This document shows positions 39,661-63,757 of a DNA stretch of 64,000 nt, in pieces. Positions within the stretch are counted from its first letter, which is position 1. Each line of letters starts with the position of its first letter. The DNA lies in assembly GCA_964613915.1 (NCBI GenBank), contig CAZTIW010000014.1, positions 30,928 through 94,927 on the forward strand. Reading direction: 5' to 3'. Made by a program: the position numbers and the translations under genes. Under the pieces are notes generated by a model. It worked only from the letters and a program-made list of their open reading frames with translations. It did no database searches and was not told where the DNA came from. The stretch comes from an uncultured Thermoanaerobaculia bacterium. GTDB taxonomy: Bacteria > Acidobacteriota > JBCCFW01.

Positions 39661-42600
39661 ATGACCCTGCAACGCCATCTGTTCGGGATTCTCCTCGCCG
39701 TCTCGGTTGCCCTCGTGCCGTCATCGGCCCTCGCCGCTGACTCCGATGGCGACGGCGTGGACGACGCCTTCGACAACTGCGTCGCGACGCCGAACCCGGG
39801 CCAGGCCGACGCCGACGGCGACGGTCGCGGTGACGCCTGCGACAACTGCCCGCTCGCGGCGAACCCCCTGCAGGTGGACGCGGACTTCGACGGATTCGGC
39901 AACGTCTGCGATGTCTGCCCGACCGTGGCCGATCCGGGCCAGGCGGACGGGGACGGCGACGGCGTGGGCGACGCGTGCGACAACTGCCCGGCGGACTTCA
40001 ACCCCGGCCAGTCGGACATGGATGGCGACCTGCTCGGCGATCCGTGCGATCCCGATGCCGACGGCGACTTCCTTCCGGACGGCTTCGACAACTGCCCGCT
40101 GGTCCCGAATCCGCTGCAGGAGAACGCCGACTTCGACCCCTTCGGCGACGCCTGCGACAACTGCCCGACGATCCCCTCGGCCTCGCAAGCGGACAATGAC
40201 GGCGACGGCGTGGGCGACGTCTGCGACAACTGCCCGGCAACCCTCAACGCCTCGCAGGCAGACGCCGACGGCGACAACGTGGGCGATGCCTGCGACAACT
40301 GCCCGTCCGCGAACAACGCCCTGCAGTCCGACAGCGACGGCGACGGCATCGGCGACGCGTGCGACATCTGCCCGGCCGTGTTCGACCCCGCGCAGCCCAA
40401 CTCCGACGGCGATGCCTTCGGCGACGGCTGCGACAACTGCCCCACCGTGACGAACGCGCTGCAGTCCGACCAGGACGCGGACGGCGTGGGCGACGCGTGC
40501 GACGACTGCCCGTTCGCGGCCGATCCCGGCCAGACGGACGCGGACGGCGACCTGGTGGGTGACGCCTGCGACAACTGCCCCTCGATCGTCAACAACACGC
40601 AGGCTGACCAGGACGGGGACGGCGTGGGCGATCCGTGCGACAACTGTCCGTCCACCGCCAACGCGGGCCAGGCCGACGCGGACGGCGACGGGCGCGGCGA
40701 TGCGTGCGACAACTGTCCCGGCAACGCCAACCCGGGCCAGGCTGACGATGACGGGGACGGCCTCGGCAACCCTTGCGACAACTGCCGCTTCATGCCGAAC
40801 CCGCTCCAGGAGAACGCCGACGGCGACTCGCGCGGCGACGCGTGCGACAACTGCGTCAACGTCCCGAACGGCGGTCAGGCCAACACCGATGGCGACGCCT
40901 TCGGCAACGCGTGCGACAACTGCCCGACGGTGGCCTCGCTCGATCAGGCGGATGGCGACGGCGACGGCATCGGCGATGTCTGCGACAACTGCCCGACCGT
41001 GAGCAACGCCTCGCAGGCCGACGCCGACACGGATGGCGTCGGCGACGCCTGCGACCAGTGTCCGGCCATCCCCGACACGGATCGCGACGGCGCGTGCGAC
41101 TTCCGGGACAACTGCCCGCTCACGTTCAACCCGGATCAGGCGGATTCGGACATTGACGGCGAGGGCGACGCGTGCGACGGCTGTCCGTGCGATCCCGCGA
41201 ACGTGAACTCGGACGGCGACGCCATCTGTGACTGCGTGGACAACTGCCCGGGCACGACCAACCCCGATCAGCTCGACACGGATCTCGACCGTCGCGGCAA
41301 CGCCTGCGACAACTGCCCGCTCGTCGCGAACCCGTCGCAGCTGGACACGGACGGCGACGGCCGTGGAGACGCCTGCGACAACTGCCCGACGCGCGTGAAC
41401 CTGTCGCAGCTCGACGCCGACGGCGATGGCTTCGGCAACTCGTGCGACAACTGCGTGTTCATCCCGAACCCCACGCAGCTCGACTCGGACGGCGACGGCT
41501 GGGGCGACGTCTGCGACAACTGCCCCGTGGCGAACCCCACGCAGGCGGACGCCGACGGCGACGGCATCGGCGATGCCTGCGACAACTGCCGGAGCGCGGC
41601 CAACGCGACGCAGATCGATGGCGACGGCGACGGCGTGGGTGACGCCTGCGACAACTGCCCGGCGGTCGCCAACGCGACGCAGGCCAACACCGATGGCGAC
41701 GGCGCCGGCAACGCCTGCGACAACTGCCCGACGGTCGCGTCCGCCACGCAGCTGGACTCGGATGGCGACCTGGTGGGCGACGCCTGCGACAACTGCCCGG
41801 GCATCGCGAACGCGACGCAGGCCAATCGCGACGGCGACGCGCTCGGCGACGCCTGCGACAACTGTCCGACGGTGGCGGGCGCCAGCACGGCCGACAGCGA
41901 CGGCGACGGTGTCGGCGACGCGTGCGACAACTGCCCGTCCTTCCCGAACACGCTCCAGAACGACGTGGACCGCGACGGGACGGGCGACTCGTGCGACAAC
42001 TGTCCCAGCGTCGCGAACCCCCTGCAGCAGGATGGCGACGGCGACGGCGTCGGCGACATCTGCGACACCTGTCCCGCGACCGGCGACAACGATCGGGATC
42101 TGGATGGCCGTTGCGGCGACGTGGACAACTGCCCGTTCGTCGGCAACCCCGGCCAGGAGGACGCCGACGGCGACGGCCTCGGCGATGTCTGCGACGCTTG
42201 CCCGCGTGACGCCGCGAACGACGCGGACGGCGACGGCATCTGCGCGAACTCGGACAACTGCCCGACGGTCTTCAACCCGAACCAGGCCGACGCCGACAGC
42301 GACCGGATCGGCGACGCCTGCGATCCGTTCCCGGGCGACACGCTGAACGACGCCGATGGCGACGGCATCCCGGGCACGATCGACAACTGTCCGAACGTCA
42401 GCAACGCGCTGCAGCTCGACGGCGACGGGGACGGGCGCGGGGATGCCTGCGACAACTGTCTCGCGTTCCAGAACGCCGGCCAGGAAGACCTGAACGTCAA
42501 TGGCCGGGGCGATGCCTGCGAGGTCCGCTACGGCGACGTCGCTCCCGCGGGCATGCCTGACGGGGTGCTCAACGTCGGCGATGTCGTGCGCGCGCTCCGC

Positions 42601-42792
42601 TTCGCGGTCGGCCTCGAGGTGCCGACGCGGTCCGAGCGCGACCGGTGCAACGTCGCGCCGGCGCTGCTGGCGGGCGCCAACCCCCAGATCGCCACCCCGA
42701 CGCAGGCGGCCCCGCGGCAGATCGATGTCTCCGATGTCGTGCTGATGCTGCGGGGCTCGGTCGGCCTGCTCGTCTTCACCGATCCGGTCTGA
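39661..42792 (+). CDS. Secreted thrombospondin-type-3 (TSP3) calcium-binding repeat protein, 1043 aa, with dockerin-like C-terminal segment
   Basis: Signal peptide [25 protein letters not shown]; about 40 tandem copies of D[14 protein letters not shown]; C-terminal paired segments [19 protein letters not shown] and [16 protein letters not shown]. Confidence 0.85.
39730..42480 (+). repeat. Intragenic tandem array of about 75-bp TSP3 repeat units
   Basis: Recurrent GACGGCGACGGCGTGGGCGACGCCTGCGACAACTGCCCG-like units throughout the CDS. Confidence 0.8.
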
Positions 42793-54182: not shown

Positions 54183-57100
54183 ATGCCCGTGGCGATGCGT
54201 TGGCGCGGCATGCTCGTTCTGCCGATCGTTGGCATGGTTCTTGCCCCCCCCTCCGCGCTCGCAGGATGGCCCGAGGGACACGTGCAGGTTCAGGTGGAGA
54301 AACCCTGTCCCGTGGGTCCCAGTCGCTCAGGTGTTGGCCTCGGTGACGGGTCGCTGACGCTCGACTTTCCGTTCGTCCTCGTCCCGCAGGCGCCTGGACC
54401 GGTTGTCTTCTCCTTGCAGTACGCCAGCGGAGCGGACAACCCCGGGACGTACGGCACGCGGCTGAACCTGCGCGTCCGGACGGAGAAGCGAACGGACGCG
54501 TGCCCGGGGTTCTCGCCGGCGTCGGACTTCGTTCCGCGAGCGGTGGATGCCGCGGAGGTCAACTTCAACACATCGCCGGGCGATCAGCGCGCCGTGGGCT
54601 TCGGCGTCCGAAAGTCAAACAACGGCGGCTCCTCGGAGGCCTGCAACGTCTCTCGATCGAGTGAGATGCCATTCCCTTCCAGCAACTTGGTTCGAGGGGG
54701 AGGACTGCCGTCGGACTGGTGCCCGGGCGGCCCCGTCGGTGGCCACGGCTGCGTGTCCGACATGGAAGCCGTGGTCACGCTGCCGCTGCGACTCTCGGAT
54801 CCCGGCGATCCAGGAGCGCAGATGGCCTATCAGCGGAAGGCGCCTGGCCAGCCTGACTGTCCACCGCCGGTGCCGAATGAGTTTCCGGCGGATCGCGGGG
54901 TCTACAGCATCAATGCGGGGGCGACGCTTCGATTCGACTCGCCCGCGTACTCAAGGAACGACTACAGCCACGACGACAGGCAGTCCGACGACCCGTGCGA
55001 GCAGTTCCTCTACCTCGAGAAGCGGCCTGACGAGACCATCGCGCGCCTCGGCGTGAACTGGACTCACTCGTTCGCATGGAGCCTGACGGAATATAGCGTT
55101 GGCACGAGGCAGTTCGTTGCAGTGAGGTCGCCGCGCGGGAGCGTGAGCCTGTACGAGCGGCCGGCGGGACTGGCTCTCAACCAGGAACTCCCGCTTCGTC
55201 CCTCGGCAGGCTGTTCGTGCCAATCGGCGCGGCTCTTCTGGACTAGGCGCTCGTTCGCTCCTCCCGGGATCGGCGTGAGCTTCTTCGCCTACGAGCTCGT
55301 GGCCGAAGACGCTTCACGCATGGTCTTCACGGAGTTCAGCGTCTTCGAGGGGGGACAGCTTCGCGCCCCGGCAGGTCGCCTCGTTCGTCTCGAGGACAAC
55401 GATGGCCAGAGTCCCATCGCCCTCACGTACGACACGAACGGCGACCTGGCCCGCGTCTACGATGCAGCGGGCTTCCACGTGGAGCTGCAGTACGCGGAGA
55501 CCCCAAGCGGGCGACGGCTCGAGCGGCTCGTCCTGCCGGGCGGGCGGCAGGTCTCGCTGGGCTGGCTGGCGGGCAAGCTCGCTTCGCTGCGCGACCCCGT
55601 TCATGTCGCTCAGAACCTTCCCGGCTACACGTTCGCCTACGGCACGGGCTTGAGTTCCGAGGACATCACGTGCCGCACGTCGCCTGACGGCGAGATTCAT
55701 CGGTACACGTACATCACCGATCCTGCGGATCCCAACGCCGGCCGGCTCAAGACGGCCGAGATCGTGGACAGCTGCGAGGCTACCGAATCGAAGAACACGC
55801 TGACCTACACGTACTCGCGCCCCGACTCCGTGGACGGCGAGCGCTGGGTGAAGATCACGCCTCACTTGGTGACCACGGCACCCATCATCAAGAACGTTCT
55901 GAACGCCGACGGCCATCTCATCCGCACGGAAGAGATCTGTGCCGAGACGAGCGCCGAGGCTGTTGCGCGATCCTGTCCGGTGGTGCCCGAGATCAGTCCG
56001 CACCCGGTCGTTGCGATGGTGAGCTCCACCAGCTACGACGAGTTCGGACAAGCGCGCGCCGTGCGCACGTACCCCGTGGTGCTCCCTCCCTACGACCCGT
56101 CGGATCCGCCGAGCCCAACGAGCCTCGATGCCACGCACTTCTCGGTATCGTGCGTGACGCGCGATGCGTCGCAAGGCAAGCCCATCACGTTGTTCGGGTC
56201 AACATGCATTGATACCTCGACCGTGCCGCCGACGGCGGTGGATGGCTGGACGGATGAAGCCTGCGACTGCGATCTGGCGCAGCTCAATGCCGCCCCCGTT
56301 CCGACGGTCGCGCCCATCGGCACGCAGGTGAGCTGGGAGTTCGATGTCCAGGGTGCGGGTCCGACGCCGATCCTCGTCACGTACGATCGGCCCCGCCGCG
56401 TGATAGCGCCGAGCCAGCGGACAGACCCCGGGCAGGGCGCGCCTGGAGCCAGCGCCAAGGGCGTGCGGATCTTCTACTACGAGACGGTGGGGTATCCCAT
56501 CCGTTCCCACATCTCGGACATCTGCCCGCCCGAAGTGGACTCACCCGAGCCCGGGTTGGGCTGCGAGCACTTCGAGTACAACTTCTACACGATCCACGGC
56601 GGCGACGTGGTTCAGCTTGCGAGCCGGACGGACGGCTCGGGGAACACGTGGACCTACGAGTACGATCCGCTGACGCATCTCCTGTCGCGGATCACCGCTC
56701 CGTCGTCGGACGGACAGCAGTTCGTGACGAACTTCCAGTACGGCACCGACGGACTCTTGAACTACGTCGAGGCGCCGGGCGGTCTCGTGACCGCGTTCCT
56801 GCGCAACGAGCGCGGACAGATCGCGATCGAGTCCCGCCCGGGCGCGGCGCCGCCGGAGCGCATGCAAGTCCGCTACACGTACACGCCCGGGGGCAAGCTG
56901 CGGCGCATCGCGGATGAGAGCCGGGAGTCGCAATCCTCCCCGGGGAAGTACGTCGCGTGGTGGATCAGTTATGGCGGACCGGCGGTGTTCAGCGACTGGG
57001 GTGCCGAGCCCGCACAGTTCGAACGACTCCCCCGTGCGCTGCGGCGCGGCCCGGCCACTCTGGGCGGGCCGTTCGCCACGATTGACGCGGACGAGCTTCA

Positions 57101-59282
57101 ACCTGATGAGCTGGCCGGAACGGTTTACGAGAGCTGGGACTACGACAGCAACCTCCAGCCCGTGGCGACCTACTACGGCCCTCCGTTCACCTTCAGGCGC
57201 GCACTCGTGACGAAGCGCGATGGCTTCGGTGCCGCACTCGACCTGGTCATCATGGGCCAAGGAGATTCGCCCGCCTTTTTAGAGCGAACCTGCATCGAGT
57301 CCGACCCGCGGACCGGCCTGCCACGCTCGGTCTCGTTCAGCCTGGCCCCGCCCGACGAGGATGACCTCAACTGCCCCCTGACGAACGGCGCCATGCGGCA
57401 CTCCTTCACCTACGATCGCGCAGGCCGCGCCTCCTCCACGAGCATGCAGTGGGACTTCGGAGCCGAAGGCGCGGGACTGCACCAGACCTGCCGCCAGCAT
57501 GATCCCTGGGGTCGGCTGACTCAGGTCGTGGACGAGGTGACGCTCGCGCCCACTCCCGGCTGCGATCCGATCTCGGCCTTCCGGACGACCGACGTCGCTC
57601 ACGATGACGCGGATCGTCCCTGGCTCGTGACGCTGTCCAACGCGGGGCTCCCCTACGCCGACTACCAGGTCGAGTACGACAACAACCAGCGCGCCTTCAA
57701 GTGGACCGAGGCACAATCCCGCGAGTACCTGGCGATGTCGTATCGTCCTGACGGTCTGCTGACGAACATCACGCGCGGTCGCCCGCACTCGGGTGGCTCG
57801 TCCTGGCTCGACACGAAGTTCACGCAGGACCTGCGGTACGATGCCCGGGGGTTTGTCATGCGCCTCGAGCAGCATCGCCTGCCGTACCTGTGGCCGTCGG
57901 GGGACACGACGTGGTTCTACACGCATGACGACGCGGGCCGGCTCACGGGGGCAGCGCTCGATCCCGTGGACTGGCCGTCGCTTCCGAACATCGTGGACGA
58001 GTCGTACGCCTACCTGCCCTCCAATCCCTGGAACCTCGCGTCCATCACGGACAACCTGACCAGCACGACGACAGCGTTCCCGACCGATGACGAGGATCGC
58101 ATCCAGACCCCGGATCGCGAGTATCACGCGTTCATCGGAGCGCTGAAGAGGGAGAACGGCGCGGGAGGCCAGACGCGGCGATACCGCTGGGATGTCGCGG
58201 GCCGCCTCATGGCCGTGCTGGAGGGCACCGACGCGACGGGGTACGCCGGGACGGCCTACTCGTACGATCCCTGGAACCGCCTCGTCGCCGAGCGACCGAT
58301 CACCACGGCGACGGCCACGGGCCAGCCCGTCTCGGCCGGCTCGCCGACGATTCACCTGTGGAGCGGATGGCAGCAGGTGGGGGAGGTGGAGTCGTTCGCG
58401 TCGGCGCCGGCGTTCGCGTGGAGCGACGGGCCGATGGGCCTCGCGGGCATCAAGCGCGAGGGCTCGTCACACGAGAGGCTGTTCTCGGACGCGCAGGGGT
58501 CGGTGAAGTACGGCTTCGCAGACGATCCCGTGTACACGCCGTTCGGCAAGGTGGTGAGCGGCACGCTGAGCACGGCCAAGGGCTTCCAGGGCCAGGAATG
58601 GCGCGACGAGGCGCGGCTCTACTACATGCGCCACCGCTGGTACGACCCCGCCAGCGCGCGCTTCCTGTCGCGCGACCCCGTGCGCACGGGCGCGATCCAT
58701 AACTTCGCGTTCGCGATGGATAGCCCGGTGATGATGGGGGATCCGATGGGGTTGGATACCTTCGTTCTCATTGCTCATGCAGGCGGGGGCGGCGACAAGA
58801 AGGGCTCGTTTGGCCATGCTGCGCTTGTGACGTGGGATGAAACCGGGGCCGGAGGGTTCGTCGACCACATGGGCCAGAACTCCATGTGGGATCCCAGTCC
58901 GAGCATTTCCATTCCGCACGCTGATCGCGTCTCTCGGTTCGTCAGCAACTATGTTCGAGGCAACCACCGAGACGTGAGCATCTTCGAACTCGATCTGAGT
59001 GCTGAGGTCGAGGCTGCATTGCGCAATGCTATCTCCGCTCGCGCCGGTGCCCCGGAACCGAAAAGGCTCTTCACCAACAACTGTACAGATGTCGTGACAG
59101 ACGTGCTCCATCAGGCAGGCGTGAGCGAGCGAGTGCGGATATTAGGTCCGTTTCCACTGTTTCTATTCACGATGAGAGTACCGCTCGGTGGAGGGCACGG
59201 AATCAGCTGGCCGGATAGGCTCCACTCCTCTCTTCTGAAGGCTCCGTTCACACGTAGCTACACGCGAATTGAGGCCCAGTGA
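54183..59282 (+). CDS. RHS/YD-repeat polymorphic toxin, about 1700 aa, with signal peptide and variable C-terminal toxin tip (CT1)
   Basis: ATG at 54183 preceded by GGAGG; signal MPVAMRWRGMLVLPIVGMVLAPPSALA; many YD-type repeats; core end LYYMRHRWYDPASARFLSRDPV followed by the DPMGL boundary; divergent 175-aa tip. Confidence 0.9.
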   Translation: MPVAMRWRGMLVLPIVGMVLAPPSALAGWPEGHVQVQVEKPCPVGPSRSGVGLGDGSLTLDFPFVLVPQAPGPVVFSLQYASGADNPGTYGTRLNLRVRTEKRTDACPGFSPASDFVPRAVDAAEVNFNTSPGDQRAVGFGVRKSNNGGSSEACNVSRSSEMPFPSSNLVRGGGLPSDWCPGGPVGGHGCVSDMEAVVTLPLRLSDPGDPGAQMAYQRKAPGQPDCPPPVPNEFPADRGVYSINAGATLRFDSPAYSRNDYSHDDRQSDDPCEQFLYLEKRPDETIARLGVNWTHSFAWSLTEYSVGTRQFVAVRSPRGSVSLYERPAGLALNQELPLRPSAGCSCQSARLFWTRRSFAPPGIGVSFFAYELVAEDASRMVFTEFSVFEGGQLRAPAGRLVRLEDNDGQSPIALTYDTNGDLARVYDAAGFHVELQYAETPSGRRLERLVLPGGRQVSLGWLAGKLASLRDPVHVAQNLPGYTFAYGTGLSSEDITCRTSPDGEIHRYTYITDPADPNAGRLKTAEIVDSCEATESKNTLTYTYSRPDSVDGERWVKITPHLVTTAPIIKNVLNADGHLIRTEEICAETSAEAVARSCPVVPEISPHPVVAMVSSTSYDEFGQARAVRTYPVVLPPYDPSDPPSPTSLDATHFSVSCVTRDASQGKPITLFGSTCIDTSTVPPTAVDGWTDEACDCDLAQLNAAPVPTVAPIGTQVSWEFDVQGAGPTPILVTYDRPRRVIAPSQRTDPGQGAPGASAKGVRIFYYETVGYPIRSHISDICPPEVDSPEPGLGCEHFEYNFYTIHGGDVVQLASRTDGSGNTWTYEYDPLTHLLSRITAPSSDGQQFVTNFQYGTDGLLNYVEAPGGLVTAFLRNERGQIAIESRPGAAPPERMQVRYTYTPGGKLRRIADESRESQSSPGKYVAWWISYGGPAVFSDWGAEPAQFERLPRALRRGPATLGGPFATIDADELQPDELAGTVYESWDYDSNLQPVATYYGPPFTFRRALVTKRDGFGAALDLVIMGQGDSPAFLERTCIESDPRTGLPRSVSFSLAPPDEDDLNCPLTNGAMRHSFTYDRAGRASSTSMQWDFGAEGAGLHQTCRQHDPWGRLTQVVDEVTLAPTPGCDPISAFRTTDVAHDDADRPWLVTLSNAGLPYADYQVEYDNNQRAFKWTEAQSREYLAMSYRPDGLLTNITRGRPHSGGSSWLDTKFTQDLRYDARGFVMRLEQHRLPYLWPSGDTTWFYTHDDAGRLTGAALDPVDWPSLPNIVDESYAYLPSNPWNLASITDNLTSTTTAFPTDDEDRIQTPDREYHAFIGALKRENGAGGQTRRYRWDVAGRLMAVLEGTDATGYAGTAYSYDPWNRLVAERPITTATATGQPVSAGSPTIHLWSGWQQVGEVESFASAPAFAWSDGPMGLAGIKREGSSHERLFSDAQGSVKYGFADDPVYTPFGKVVSGTLSTAKGFQGQEWRDEARLYYMRHRWYDPASARFLSRDPVRTGAIHNFAFAMDSPVMMGDPMGLDTFVLIAHAGGGGDKKGSFGHAALVTWDETGAGGFVDHMGQNSMWDPSPSISIPHADRVSRFVSNYVRGNHRDVSIFELDLSAEVEAALRNAISARAGAPEPKRLFTNNCTDVVTDVLHQAGVSERVRILGPFPLFLFTMRVPLGGGHGISWPDRLHSSLLKAPFTRSYTRIEAQ
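57768..58754 (+). repeat. Copy A (inside full-length rhs) of a 987-bp near-identical direct repeat
   Basis: Identical ORF translations recur with a constant offset of 2142 bp (57793-58059 vs 59935-60201; 58192-58506 vs 60334-60648); ends exactly at the DPMGL codons. Confidence 0.9.
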
Positions 59283-59872
59283 GTTCCCGGAAAGCGAGGA
59301 CCCAGGTGGCGCTGCGGCTGCGCGGCGTCGTCGCTGCTCTCATCGCCCGGCCCTGGAGTGTCATCCTCATCGTTGCCGGATGCCTCGCACTGTGGACGGC
59401 GACTCACGTCCTTTGCCACGCGAGGAGTCTGAACCGTCAACTCGCGGACTTTGGCGATCTCCTGAACACTCGGTACTGCCTTGGAGCAATCGACATTGCT
59501 GCGCTCGATCCTGCGCGCATCTCTGGTGACATGGTGGGCGCCTGCCGTCTCATTGACGTGTACGGTCATCAAGTCTCGCTACACGTGTGGTCAGACGGCA
59601 CTAAAGTGCTTTGGTTGCTCGTGTCGCCCGGACGGGATGGCATGCTGGACTGGCCGCTCGAGGTCTATCAGCAAGAGGCCACGGAGATGCAAGGGGATAT
59701 CGGTCGTGACATTCTCGGCGACTTTGATGCTGACATCGTCATCTCCGAGCGCAAGCTCATTCAGTTCCCTAACAAGGTGGATGCCACGATCGCTGATGTC
59801 CTCGGAATCCCCATCGCAAGCCCAGCGCGCTCTCGAAGGACGCTCCGCCCGAGTCAGCGTGAACCGCATTAA
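59279..59872 (+). CDS. Putative cognate immunity protein for CT1
   Basis: GTG start overlapping the rhs stop (GTGA); N-terminal TM helix; local GC is lower than the flanks. Confidence 0.5.
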   Translation: MSSRKARTQVALRLRGVVAALIARPWSVILIVAGCLALWTATHVLCHARSLNRQLADFGDLLNTRYCLGAIDIAALDPARISGDMVGACRLIDVYGHQVSLHVWSDGTKVLWLLVSPGRDGMLDWPLEVYQQEATEMQGDIGRDILGDFDADIVISERKLIQFPNKVDATIADVLGIPIASPARSRRTLRPSQREPH

Positions 59873-59909
59873 TAAGTGGCGCCACTCAGGCCCCCGCTAT
59901 CTGAATACC

Positions 59910-60896
59910 ATCACGCGCGGTCGCCCGCACTCGGGTGGCTCGTCCTGGCTCGACACGAAGTTCACGCAGGACCTGCGGTACGATGCCCGGGGGTTTGTCA
60001 TGCGCCTCGAGCAGCATCGCCTGCCGTACCTGTGGCCGTCGGGGGACACGACGTGGTTCTACACGCATGACGACGCGGGCCGGCTCACGGGGGCAGCGCT
60101 CGATCCCGTGGACTGGCCGTCGCTTCCGAACATCGTGGACGAGTCGTACGCCTACCTGCCCTCCAATCCCTGGAACCTCGCGTCCATCACGGACAACCTG
60201 ACCAGCACGACGACAGCGTTCCCGACCGATGACGAGGATCGCATCCAGACCCCGGATCGCGAGTATCACGCGTTCATCGGAGCGCTGAAGAGGGAGAACG
60301 GCGCGGGAGGCCAGACGCGGCGATACCGCTGGGATGTCGCGGGCCGCCTCATGGCCGTGCTGGAGGGCACCGACGCGACGGGGTACGCCGGGACGGCCTA
60401 CTCGTACGATCCCTGGAACCGCCTCGTCGCCGAGCGACCGATCACCACGGCGACGGCCACGGGCCAGCCCGTCTCGGCCGGCTCGCCGACGATTCACCTG
60501 TGGAGCGGATGGCAGCAGGTGGGGGAGGTGGAGTCGTTCGCGTCGGCGCCGGCGTTCGCGTGGAGCGACGGGCCGATGGGCCTCGCGGGCATCAAGCGCG
60601 AGGGCTCGTCACACGAGAGGCTGTTCTCGGACGCGCAGGGGTCGGTGAAGTACGGCTTCGCAGACGATCCCGTGTACACGCCGTTCGGCAAGGTGGTGAG
60701 CGGCACGCTGAGCACGGCCAAGGGCTTCCAGGGCCAGGAATGGCGCGACGAGGCGCGGCTCTACTACATGCGCCACCGCTGGTACGACCCCGCCAGCGCG
60801 CGCTTCCTGTCGCGCGACCCCGTGCGCACTGGCGCGATCCATAACTTCGCGTTCGCGATGGATAGCCCCGTGATGATGGGGGATCCGATGGGGTTG
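59910..60896 (+). repeat. Copy B (orphan rhs fragment) of the same 987-bp direct repeat
   Basis: As copy A; two single-base differences seen, both synonymous in the rhs frame (ACG/ACT Thr near 58688/60830; CCG/CCC Pro near 58737/60879). Confidence 0.9.
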
Positions 60897-61439
60897 CTGC
60901 CGGCATGGATGGAGGCCGAACTCGCGCAGGCGTATGGCAATGGTTCGTTCGCTGAAAAGGAGGCGACGTTGAGGCGCGCTGTCGCGTTGCTTCGACAGTG
61001 CGCTGCGCCAGACTATCGGAAGACCGTGGGGAACGCGCTGGGTGCGGTCAACGTTCGGGCAATGCTAGCTCGGCCACCTCAGTCGGGCGGCAGTGGGCGC
61101 GCAGGATTCACCAATCCGCACACGGGTGACGTGACGATTACTGCGTTGGCCTTCCGTTCACTTCCGCCGCAGGCAGACGGGAGGGTTAGTTCTCGAGTTC
61201 CGGTAAAGAATGGCACTTGGTCTCCAGCCGGCTACACGCCTCCGATTGGTTCCGCCACGAAGTGGGATGGTCTTCTGATAGCGATCGCCCACGAAGGCCA
61301 GCACGTTGCGGATGTGCTGAGCCGGCAGGGACCTCCCGGTCCGCCGCTGCAAACCTTCGATCCGCGTCACGTTGAGATCCACGAGACCGCTCACGCCATC
61401 GTCGAATCGATGTACTACGCGGGCTGCAACTGTGACTAG
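59910..61439 (+). other. Orphan rhs C-terminal cassette: about 330 codons of rhs core fused to an alternative toxin tip (CT2) with HExxH motifs; no own start
   Basis: In-frame continuation of the RHS core from ITRGRPHSGG to DPMGL, then unrelated 180-aa tip containing AHEGQH and IHETAH; the 5-prime part of the long ORF (59481-59909) overlaps the immunity gene out of frame. Confidence 0.7.
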
Positions 61440-61449
61440 GAGTTCCTTC

Positions 61450-62151
61450 ATGAGGGTACTCGTGCTGGGAATGAGCTTCGCCCTGGTCACGGCGCAACAC
61501 GTGGAGTGCGACGCGAGGGCAGGCTCGGCATCGCTTCGAGAGTCTCGTGCGGTGTTCGTGTCGGATCCGAGGTCACCTAGCAACAGGACAAGACTTGCGG
61601 GCATTCAGTGGCCCGAGGATCCGGACGCGGCCTGTGTCGCCAAGCGCTTTGCCGATGCACTTCTCGCGCGAGAGGGAGCGCGCCCGGTGCGGCGCGGCAA
61701 ACGCCAAGCGGCGCGCATCGAGTTGACCGTGCTCTGGCTGCCCGGGGGGCATCACGGGTACGACGAGTACTGGGATCCCGAGCGCGAGGAGACGCGGGTT
61801 GACTTCGCGCAAGTCTTGGTCGCGACGGGCGCTGCGGTAGTGGACCCCAAGCCGCTCCAGACGTCGAGGAGGCAAGTGTGTGGCCTCCGGATCGGCGAGG
61901 AAATTGCCGAGCGCGGGTATCGCGGAGCATGGGCTCCTGCACTGCAAATGGGTTCGTGCGGAGACCTTTCTGTCCAGTGGTCAATCTTCTTGGGAGAAGA
62001 GAATGCGCAAGCCCTTGTCGTCTGGATTCGGGACGAACTCGCATGCCTCCCGGTGGCATGCGGAGGCGGGACGCCAGAATTCTGCGACGGCGAAATCGCT
62101 GATCTCGTTCGCCAACTGCACGAGCACGAGGAGGAAGGCCGCCGGCCATGA
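61450..62151 (+). CDS. Putative cognate immunity protein for CT2
   Basis: ATG at 61450 with AGGAG 8 nt upstream, 11 bp after the CT2 stop; Cys-containing 233-aa protein. Confidence 0.45.
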   Translation: MRVLVLGMSFALVTAQHVECDARAGSASLRESRAVFVSDPRSPSNRTRLAGIQWPEDPDAACVAKRFADALLAREGARPVRRGKRQAARIELTVLWLPGGHHGYDEYWDPEREETRVDFAQVLVATGAAVVDPKPLQTSRRQVCGLRIGEEIAERGYRGAWAPALQMGSCGDLSVQWSIFLGEENAQALVVWIRDELACLPVACGGGTPEFCDGEIADLVRQLHEHEEEGRRP

Positions 62152-62194: not shown

Positions 62195-63757
62195 ATGGTC
62201 TCCTTCGTCAGCCTGTTGTTCCTGTTTGGGATGTTCGCTTCATGCGCAGGCGCATGCTCGTGTCGCGTCTCCGCCAAGCGCGCTCAACCCAGTACGAGCG
62301 AGAGCCCCATGCCGCTGGCCGTGGCCTTGAAGCGTGCCGACCTCGTGACCCTCGGCACGCTTGACATGTCGCCCGAGAGTGACTGCGAGTCGGGCGTCGG
62401 ATTCCGAGTCGAGCGCATCCTGAAGGGCGATGGCCGCGACAGGGAGTCCGTGTGTCTGGGCGATGCTGTCTCGCGCGAGCGGCTTCCGATTCCATTCCTC
62501 GTCAGCGAGGGGAGCGTGCTCGCGCTTCTGCGCCGTGAGCGTCAGGCGACAGCGGTGGGACCGGCGACGTACACGCCAGTTCCGAATCTGGCGGGACTCA
62601 TGCCGCTGGACATCGTCGCGTTCTGCCCGGTCGTGTCGATCAGGCCCGATCAGATCGGAATCCCGGCCGGGTTCAACGGCATGTGGCTGCGGTACCCGGA
62701 TTTCTCTCCCGCTTTCGTGTTCATGACGACGCTCGTTGACATGGAGGAGGCCGTCAGGGGTGAGCGGCCCCGGATGCCGCCGAGCGCCGTGGAAGGGGAT
62801 CGGCCGGGCTTGCGGCGTCCTGCGGCTCCGGGCGGCGGGCCATTACAGGCGCGTCCGCCGCGGCGCGGCAACGTCGCGGGAGCGCGACAGCGAGCGAGCC
62901 CCCTCCTGAGTCACGCTCCGAGGCACGCTGGACTGTTCGCCGCCATCCTCCCCGAGGGAGTCGCGGCGCTCGGTGACGGGGCGTTCGCCATCGCGCATCG
63001 AGGGGGCGCGGCGGTGTCGGTGGGCGAGACGTTCGTGGACACGGCGGGCGATCCGGCGCCGCGCGAGGTCGGGCGGTTCGGGGGCTTCGGCGAGGACGAG
63101 TGCCGGTTCGTGCAGCCGGTGGACGTGGCTGGCGAGAGGTCGCGCGTGCGCGTGCTCGATCGCGTCCGCCGCGTGGTCGTCGAGGTGGACTTCAGTCAGG
63201 AGACGCCAACATGCCTTCGCGAGATCGTGCTGGCGGAGGTTCGCGATCCCGAGGCGGTCGAGGTGTCGCCCGACGGCGCGGTGCTCGTGCTGGACGCTGG
63301 CGAGAACGTCATCCGCGTGGTGCGGGATGGCGCGCTCACCGACAGGCGCATCGGAGCGTTCGGGCGGGGACGCGAGGGCATGAGCTGTCCGCATGATCTG
63401 GCGCTCGGCGCGGACGGGACGATCTACGTGGCCGATTCGGGCAACCGACGCATCCAGCGGTACCGGCTGTCGGATGGCGCATGCCTCGGGCCGTGGGGAA
63501 GCCACGGGAACGCGGCCGATCAGTTCATTGACCCCACCGGGGTTGCCATGAACGAGAACGGCGAGCTTCTCGTGGCCGATCGCTACGCGCATCGCATCCA
63601 GGTCTTCGATGTCGGCGCCGGGCGCGAGGAAGTGGCGCGACGCCTGGAGCTGCCCCCGCAGGTTCGGTATCCGACGCGGCTCGCGGTGCTGGCTGGAAAC
63701 CTCTGCGTCGTGACCTGCGCGCAGCCCTCCGAGGTGTGGGTGATGGCATGTCCGTGA
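62195..63757 (+). CDS. NHL-repeat beta-propeller lipoprotein
   Basis: Signal MVSFVSLLFLFGMFASCAGAC; C-terminal NHL-type repeats (DGTIYVADSGNRRIQRY, NGELLVADRYAHRIQVF). Confidence 0.7.
   Translation: MVSFVSLLFLFGMFASCAGACSCRVSAKRAQPSTSESPMPLAVALKRADLVTLGTLDMSPESDCESGVGFRVERILKGDGRDRESVCLGDAVSRERLPIPFLVSEGSVLALLRRERQATAVGPATYTPVPNLAGLMPLDIVAFCPVVSIRPDQIGIPAGFNGMWLRYPDFSPAFVFMTTLVDMEEAVRGERPRMPPSAVEGDRPGLRRPAAPGGGPLQARPPRRGNVAGARQRASPLLSHAPRHAGLFAAILPEGVAALGDGAFAIAHRGGAAVSVGETFVDTAGDPAPREVGRFGGFGEDECRFVQPVDVAGERSRVRVLDRVRRVVVEVDFSQETPTCLREIVLAEVRDPEAVEVSPDGAVLVLDAGENVIRVVRDGALTDRRIGAFGRGREGMSCPHDLALGADGTIYVADSGNRRIQRYRLSDGACLGPWGSHGNAADQFIDPTGVAMNENGELLVADRYAHRIQVFDVGAGREEVARRLELPPQVRYPTRLAVLAGNLCVVTCAQPSEVWVMACP

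Follow-up and report, generated by a model that had tools for sequence, protein, structure and literature searches.

A probable silent orphan rhs module with a tandem-HExxH tip in an uncultured Thermoanaerobaculia bacterium

Organization of the rhs locus and its orphan module

Analysis of a 64,000-nucleotide stretch of contig CAZTIW010000014.1 (assembly GCA_964613915.1, positions 30,928 to 94,927 of the forward strand; hereafter the window, in which all coordinates are given) revealed a full-length rhs gene, a second and incomplete rhs unit behind it, and a candidate immunity gene after each, all on the plus strand. The window also includes a gene whose 1,043-aa product contains about 15 thrombospondin type 3 repeats (39661-42792, Pfam TSP_3 E 2e-124) and, downstream of the rhs units, a gene encoding a beta-propeller protein of NHL repeats, the N-terminus of which is hydrophobic and contains Cys (62207-63757, Pfam NHL E 6e-21).

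The full-length gene (about 54183-59282) encodes an Rhs protein of ~1,700 aa, the N-terminus of which (window 54183-54270), MPVAMRWRGMLVLPIVGMVLAPPSALAG, reads as a Sec signal, and the core of which ends in ...RHRWYDPASARFLSRDP...MMGDPMGL, closing at 58754. The core is followed by the tip CT1 (58755..59282, 175 aa and a stop codon), and the rhs stop is overlapped by the start of the candidate immunity gene Imm1 (59279..59872, 197 aa). Neither a PAAR nor a VgrG domain was detected in the main Rhs protein using Pfam or among the neighbouring ORFs scanned, which, together with the Sec-type signal, suggests that the protein is probably delivered by a route other than the type VI secretion system. 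Regarding the main tip, CT1 weakly matched Pfam Lnb_N, the periplasmic domain of the lipoprotein N-acyltransferase Lnb, with a score below the threshold (E 2.5e-4; 21.1 bits, cutoff 22.2 bits). Imm1 has a hydrophobic N-terminal segment with a lipobox-like IVAGC and no family match in Pfam or NCBIfam. The weak Lnb_N match of CT1 and the lipobox-like element of Imm1 hint at an envelope-directed activity.

The incomplete unit begins 28 nt 3' of the Imm1 stop with a second copy of the core end (59901..60896; its 332 codons include RHS repeats and close with RHRWYDP...DPMGL), which continues in frame into a different tip, CT2 (60897..61439, 180 aa and the stop codon TAG at 61437-61439). This copy and the 3' end of the main core (57759..58754) form a 996-bp direct repeat at an offset of 2,142 nt with 5 mismatches (~99.5% identity), three of them within the first 8 nt and the remaining two synonymous; the Pfam RHS_repeat family was matched in both copies, at E 4e-8 in the orphan one. 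Each copy ends in DPMGL (58740 in the main gene and 60882..60896 in the orphan unit), which is the self-cleavage site of Rhs proteins and which forms the boundary between core and variable tip, the two sequences parting ways at the codon immediately following it. No further core terminated by DPxGL is present in the window. The orphan core copy has no N-terminal delivery region and neither a start nor an export signal of its own, and no promoter-like site was found for the module.

Regarding the origin of the module, the rhs core has a GC3 of 0.84-0.90, and CT1 (0.64), Imm1, CT2 and Imm2 lie lower, at 0.64-0.71; such a fall is the usual mark of imported toxin/immunity cassettes. Since the core copies differ outside the first 8 nt by two synonymous changes, the module is either recent or homogenised. 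CT2 is absent from a collection of 15 billion proteins, whereas the neighbouring Imm2 is present, which indicates that the orphan frame is uncalled in public annotation; tips such as CT2 escape protein-database surveys. The locus is, with high confidence, a silent orphan rhs module. The placement of CT2 as an orphan Rhs tip following DPMGL, made in the original prediction, agrees with these findings, and the coordinates it gave for the tip (60897-61439) are exact.

The same prediction had named the next gene, Imm2 (61450-62151, 233 aa and a stop codon), as the natural immunity candidate. This assignment is supported by the gap of only 10 nt between the CT2 stop and the Imm2 ATG, by an AGGAG Shine-Dalgarno sequence (61438..61442) that overlaps the CT2 stop and lies 7 nt before the ATG, by a GC3 as low as that of CT2, and by an identical 233-aa protein called and on record at NCBI. 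Imm2 contains 7 Cys and starts with MRVLVLGMSFALVTAQH, the first residues of which (61450..61494, MR-VLVLGMSFALV-TA) consist of a basic residue, an 11-residue hydrophobic core (aa 3-13, Kyte-Doolittle 11-mer mean 2.66) and a V-T-A site with possible cleavage between VTA and QH; by inspection, these elements make the N-terminus signal-peptide-like, of the Sec type. The start of Imm2 (aa 3-31, 61456-61542) has AL[VW]TA[QT]HVxCxAR in common with aa 29-50 of Imm1 (59360-59425; BLASTP E 0.003), preceded by a hydrophobic segment, and the two proteins are otherwise unrelated. The common segment points to a signal for export or anchoring that both proteins use, or to a cassette junction that both genes share. 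Apart from the identical record, no relative of Imm2 was found among 5.8 billion clusters, and the protein has no match in Pfam, NCBIfam or PDB. By eye, aa ~100-160 of Imm2 recall the C-terminal half of staphylococcal-nuclease-like OB-fold proteins; an SNase-like assignment of this region (61750-61930, VDFAQVLVATGAAVV...EEIAERGYRGAW) has no support from Pfam or from the PDB sequence search.

Sequence, relatives and predicted structure of the orphan tip

CT2 is composite, consisting of a TPR-like unit, a Gly/Pro-rich linker and a C-terminal part of ~120 aa with a cluster of His and Glu residues. The TPR-like unit (aa 8-50, 60918..61046) is a single helical hairpin of the TPR_12/TPR_10 type, recognised by HMMER, by Pfam searches on the matches and by BLASTP; its best match, covering aa 7-45, was to TPR-CHAT proteins (E 1.8e-7, HMMER against 1.84 billion proteins), and AF2 gives helices there with pLDDT about 60. 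The unit could serve as a linker, as a plug within the Rhs shell or for binding to a target. In the C-terminal part, the first HExxH, HEGQH, lies at aa 132-136 (61290..61304; H132-E133-G-Q-H136), with D139 three residues C-terminal of H136, and the second, HETAH, 30 residues further on at aa 162-166 (61380..61394), within an i/i+4 His ladder, H158-V-E160-I-H162-E163-T-A-H166 (61368..61394), that is a candidate third-ligand helix. Five of the six His residues of CT2 fall in aa 132-166 in i/i+4 register, including the HxxxH formed by H158 and H162, and this five-His cluster is surrounded by E133, D139, E160, E163 and E170, all within ~40 residues.

Clustering of this kind is rare by chance. Among 200,000 composition-preserving shuffles of CT2, 0.7% had at least one HExxH and 0.0015% (1.5e-5) had two or more; the background in six-frame ORFs of the window is 0.022 HExxH per 180 aa, and the DNA pattern for the spaced twin motif has a single occurrence in the window and did not arise in 100 shuffles. 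The CT2 frame is open for 180 codons, the other two plus-strand frames having 7 and 5 stops.

Three descriptive claims of the original prediction can be judged against these data. Both quoted HExxH-like motifs are present, and CT2 is indeed unrelated to CT1 (BLASTP E=6); the description as a 180-aa domain is correct in length but not in the number of domains, since aa 8-50 form a TPR-like unit.

Searches for relatives of CT2 returned little beyond that unit. The profile search proposed for placing CT2 among the zincins came back empty: Pfam, which includes the Tox-MPTase models, gave no match to the whole tip or to any of three sub-segments, even with the threshold at E<=10. CT2 likewise had no NCBIfam match at E<=1 and no PHROGs match, and PADLOC returned one marginal match, PDC-S32 (E 0.022), on the TPR-like part. 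Two minimal DUF4157 zincins used as positive controls matched PF13699 at 1e-31 and 2e-28, one of them also cross-matching Peptidase_M91 and M78 at about 2e-3, so that the empty result for CT2 is no failure of the tool. A word-indexed search of 5.8 billion proteins found no match to whole CT2 or to aa 60-180, not even CT2 itself, and full filter-free HMMER against 1.84 billion representative proteins matched CT2 only at aa 7-45, to TPR-repeat proteins. Sequence searches of PDB with CT2, Imm2 and CT1 yielded noise only. Regarding DNA, no tblastn-confirmed CT2 locus was detected in 185,579 species-representative genomes or in JGI metagenomes, and tblastn against 72,556 plasmids gave matches only at E of at least 2; the one plasmid match inspected, to a hypothetical protein of Bradyrhizobium, lacks HExxH. 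Degenerate DNA scans for HExxH-x21-HxxxHExxH found, among the matches listed, only His-rich low-complexity proteins of the HEHE type. CT2 and Imm2 are singletons across all collections searched, and with CT2 known from a single sequence, neither conservation nor covariation can mark its important residues.

Because no homologue exists, AF2 was run on CT2 from the single sequence without an alignment, and mean pLDDT was 38.2 for the whole tip and 37.6 for aa 60-180, too low for a usable model. In both of these low-confidence models HEGQH forms the turn of a beta-hairpin and a helix begins at HETAH: a strand at 125-132, an EG turn and a strand at 135-143 (pLDDT about 30-46 there) are followed by a C-terminal helix, which in both runs spans about aa 163-174. 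A Foldseek search with the model gave noise only. The hydrophobic moment over aa 129-143 and 161-171 is 0.4-0.58 at 100 degrees vs 0.1-0.3 at 170 degrees, and for the HEGQH region (aa 129-143) it favours a helix, the opposite of the AF2 hairpin. Upstream of the His/Glu cluster, aa 87-99 have a strong beta-type periodicity, and this, followed by alpha periodicity, fits a layout of sheet and then helix. Gly, which HEGQH has as its first x, is an unusual residue there in the active-site helix of a zincin, and neither HExxH motif of CT2 matches the PROSITE zincin signature.

Among zincins, a comparison was made with the PVC-metallopeptidase/DUF4157 type, for which Zhang et al. (2012, PMC3482391) describe three strands, three helices and the signature HExxHxxQ...E. 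By eye, AGFTNPHTGDVTIT of CT2 resembles the strand-like xAFTxxxxxxIxx of PF13699 (eCIS_core), GYTPP...GLLIAIAHEGQHV resembles YxP...LLxAHExxHV, and DPRHVEIHETA resembles the DPxx[VLF]ExxE found about 23 residues further on. A consensus for DUF4157 was validated on plasmids (93 records, many annotated as DUF4157), and 12 diverse loci were fetched as a reference set. Against this set, an HMM run with filters off scored CT2 at 0.1 bits and aligned only IAHEGQHVA, a three-block PSSM gave p=0.05 against shuffles and p=0.10 with the motifs fixed, and hhalign returned a probability of 0.9%. Differences are also apparent, in that the invariant Gln after the DUF4157 motif is Asp in CT2 (HEGQHVAD), CT2 carries an insertion of ~25 aa, and DUF4157 is usually N-terminal whereas CT2 is a C-terminal tip. 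Membership of CT2 in DUF4157/PF13699 is thus not supported by these sequence comparisons. With these tests failed, the only surviving resemblance is the spacing from HExxH to the Glu or acidic helix, which in CT2 is 23-26 residues and lies inside the 19-27 of the twelve DUF4157 zincins.

Candidate activities of the orphan tip

The density and non-random occurrence of the clustered His and Glu residues speak for a metal site in CT2, and the exported, Cys-rich Imm2 together with the Sec signal of the Rhs protein argue for action outside the cytoplasm. On balance we slightly favour CT2 being a metal-dependent hydrolase. Within that class, zinc peptidase is the leading guess, prompted by the motifs and the apparently exported immunity candidate, and a zincin-type peptidase specifically is a tentative assignment to which we give rather less than even weight. 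The claim of a zincin-like metallopeptidase is a reasonable conjecture: CT2 has the HExxH motifs, but of the two computational checks proposed with the claim the profile search was negative for every zincin family and the structure prediction was uninformative.

The repeat architecture, the motifs and their non-random occurrence, the coupling of the genes and the lack of homologues are observed directly. For CT2 we infer metal binding, fold, peptidase activity and site of action, as well as immunity through Imm2 and activation by recombination, along the following lines. Homologous recombination between the 996-bp repeats would delete the 2,142 bp holding CT1 and Imm1 and would join CT2 to the full-length, Sec-signal-bearing Rhs protein, with Imm2 placed directly behind. 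The ~120-aa domain with the His/Glu cluster may then act as a small zinc hydrolase in the periplasm or envelope of the target cell. In a minimal gluzincin model, H132 and H136 would bind the metal, E133 would activate water, and a third ligand could come from the helix 23-26 residues downstream (E160, H162 or E163). Imm2, exported and probably disulfide-bonded, would neutralise CT2 by binding. Taken as a whole, this reading of CT2 as an extracytoplasmic metal-dependent hydrolase, likely a minimal gluzincin, held as a silent reserve that recombination activates, is possible and not far short of evenly probable.

Other uses of the same residues were weighed. A metal site could be of a non-zincin kind, either that of another cell-wall zinc hydrolase, such as a LAS/M15-like peptidoglycan peptidase, or that of a new metal-hydrolase fold, for which the absence of CT2 homologues leaves room; we regard this pair of options as unlikely. 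The LAS motif is H-x6-D plus ExxH, and both spacings are found in CT2, where the site would be built from H132-x6-D139 and E163-x2-H166; an exported immunity candidate would also fit a periplasmic cell-wall target. The M15 signature SxHxxGxAxD is nevertheless unmatched, with Ser, Gly and Ala out of register, Pfam gave no match to VanY, M15, M23 or M74, and D139 and H166 are 27 residues apart, as against about 35-60 residues between the corresponding Asp and His of known LAS enzymes. A more specific form of the new-fold option, in which the two HExxH elements 30 residues apart jointly build the site of a non-zincin metal hydrolase that acts in the periplasm and is countered by a novel exported immunity protein, is likewise improbable in our estimation. 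Further candidates were set aside on motifs alone, namely M23 (HxxxD and HxH are missing from CT2), the zinc-phospholipase C/P1-nuclease type (CT2 is too small), deaminases with HxE...PCxxC (CT2 ends at CNCD and is too short), and di-iron ExxH pairs and hemerythrin-like HxxxE, which are not toxin folds and have the wrong spacing.

The AF2 hairpin also allows CT2 to be read as a beta-beta-alpha-metal nuclease (HNH/His-Me finger), with H132 at the end of strand one of the hairpin, acting either as general base or as a ligand, and H158 and H162 binding the metal from the helix. In both low-confidence runs the order of strand 125-132, EG turn, strand 135-143 and C-terminal helix agrees with such a fold, the spacing of 26 between H132 and H158 is near the typical HNH motif spacing, and RHVEIH of CT2 is comparable to RHIDIH of colicin E9. 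The HxxxH on the putative helix is, however, the only signature element that fits: CT2 lacks an HH doublet as well as any Asn within aa 137-157, no HNH-type Pfam family matched at E<=10, and the hairpin is unreliable because of its pLDDT and is contradicted by the hydrophobic moment, which favours a helix over aa 129-143. A nuclease would, moreover, need a cytoplasmic immunity protein, and Imm2 has a signal-peptide-like start and 7 Cys. Even though nucleases of the HNH type are the commonest polymorphic-toxin tips (PMC3482391), we consider this reading very unlikely for CT2.

Finally, CT2 could be a relic that is inactive or decaying, or a tip that is no enzyme, its His/Glu cluster being non-catalytic and the downstream gene encoding an unrelated exported protein. 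This would agree with its singleton status, the searches of 1.84 billion representatives and of genome, metagenome and plasmid DNA having yielded no relative, with its being uncalled as a protein in public annotation and having no promoter-like site, and with the fact that purifying selection on it cannot be demonstrated. Decay is difficult to reconcile, however, with a frame intact over 180 codons where other frames have 5-7 stops, with a chance of about 1.5e-5 for two HExxH, with a flanking core copy that is near-identical (beyond its first 8 nt, it departs from the main copy at two synonymous sites only), and with an Imm2 that retains a strong Shine-Dalgarno sequence, its ATG and an intact 233-codon frame. 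We judge a relic or non-enzymatic tip to be improbable.

Comparison with known systems

The closest precedent for the arrangement is the orphan Rhs tip of Salmonella Typhimurium LT2, for which recombinational activation has been shown (Koskiniemi et al. 2014, PMC3967940). The Salmonella fragment has no initiation or export signals, comes into use once it has recombined with the main rhs gene, and is countered by its linked immunity protein (PMC3967940). The two loci have in common a core fragment without a start, a distinct tip, an own immunity gene (a candidate in the present case) and a long direct repeat. They differ in that the main Rhs protein described here carries a Sec-type signal and lacks a PAAR or VgrG context, and in that its orphan tip belongs to a different, unclassified family; recombination was observed in Salmonella, whereas here the 996-bp repeat only makes it possible.

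Regarding the putative activity, Rhs tips with zincin domains include Tox-MPTase1-5 and the HopH1/NleD-type Peptidase_M91 (Zhang et al. 2012, PMC3482391), and a Peptidase_M91 Rhs tip of Salmonella Dublin, SED_RS06335, is antibacterial (PMC13556075). Like these, CT2 is a small HExxH-bearing C-terminal domain following RHS repeats; unlike them, it has two HExxH motifs, an N-terminal TPR-like unit and a Gly at the first x of motif 1, and profile searches linked it to none of them. Regarding the toxin and immunity pair, an analogy can be drawn with VgrG2b and PA0261 (Wood et al. 2019, PMC6899460), in which a HExxH toxin is followed immediately downstream by an immunity protein with a signal peptide and Cys residues. 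The site of action of the VgrG2b C-terminal domain is the periplasm, and this signal-peptide-bearing, DsbA-dependent immunity protein neutralises it (PMC6899460). VgrG2b is, however, delivered on a type VI secretion spike and not in an Rhs cage, the PDB search detected no sequence similarity between the two toxins, and Imm2 (233 aa) has no relatives.

Orphan Rhs modules, HExxH-bearing tips and tips without a family are known already, and since orphan modules, HExxH tips and singleton tips are commonplace, CT2 opens no long-standing question. If CT2 is toxic, it would add one more unclassified effector/immunity pair to the catalogue of polymorphic toxins and would provide an example of a Sec-exported Rhs protein of which both tips are apparently envelope-targeting. 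What is unusual in CT2 compared with the systems above is the tandem HExxH in a sequence without relatives in anything searched, and the combination of twin motifs and no relatives makes the tip a cheap candidate for a new small metallohydrolase.
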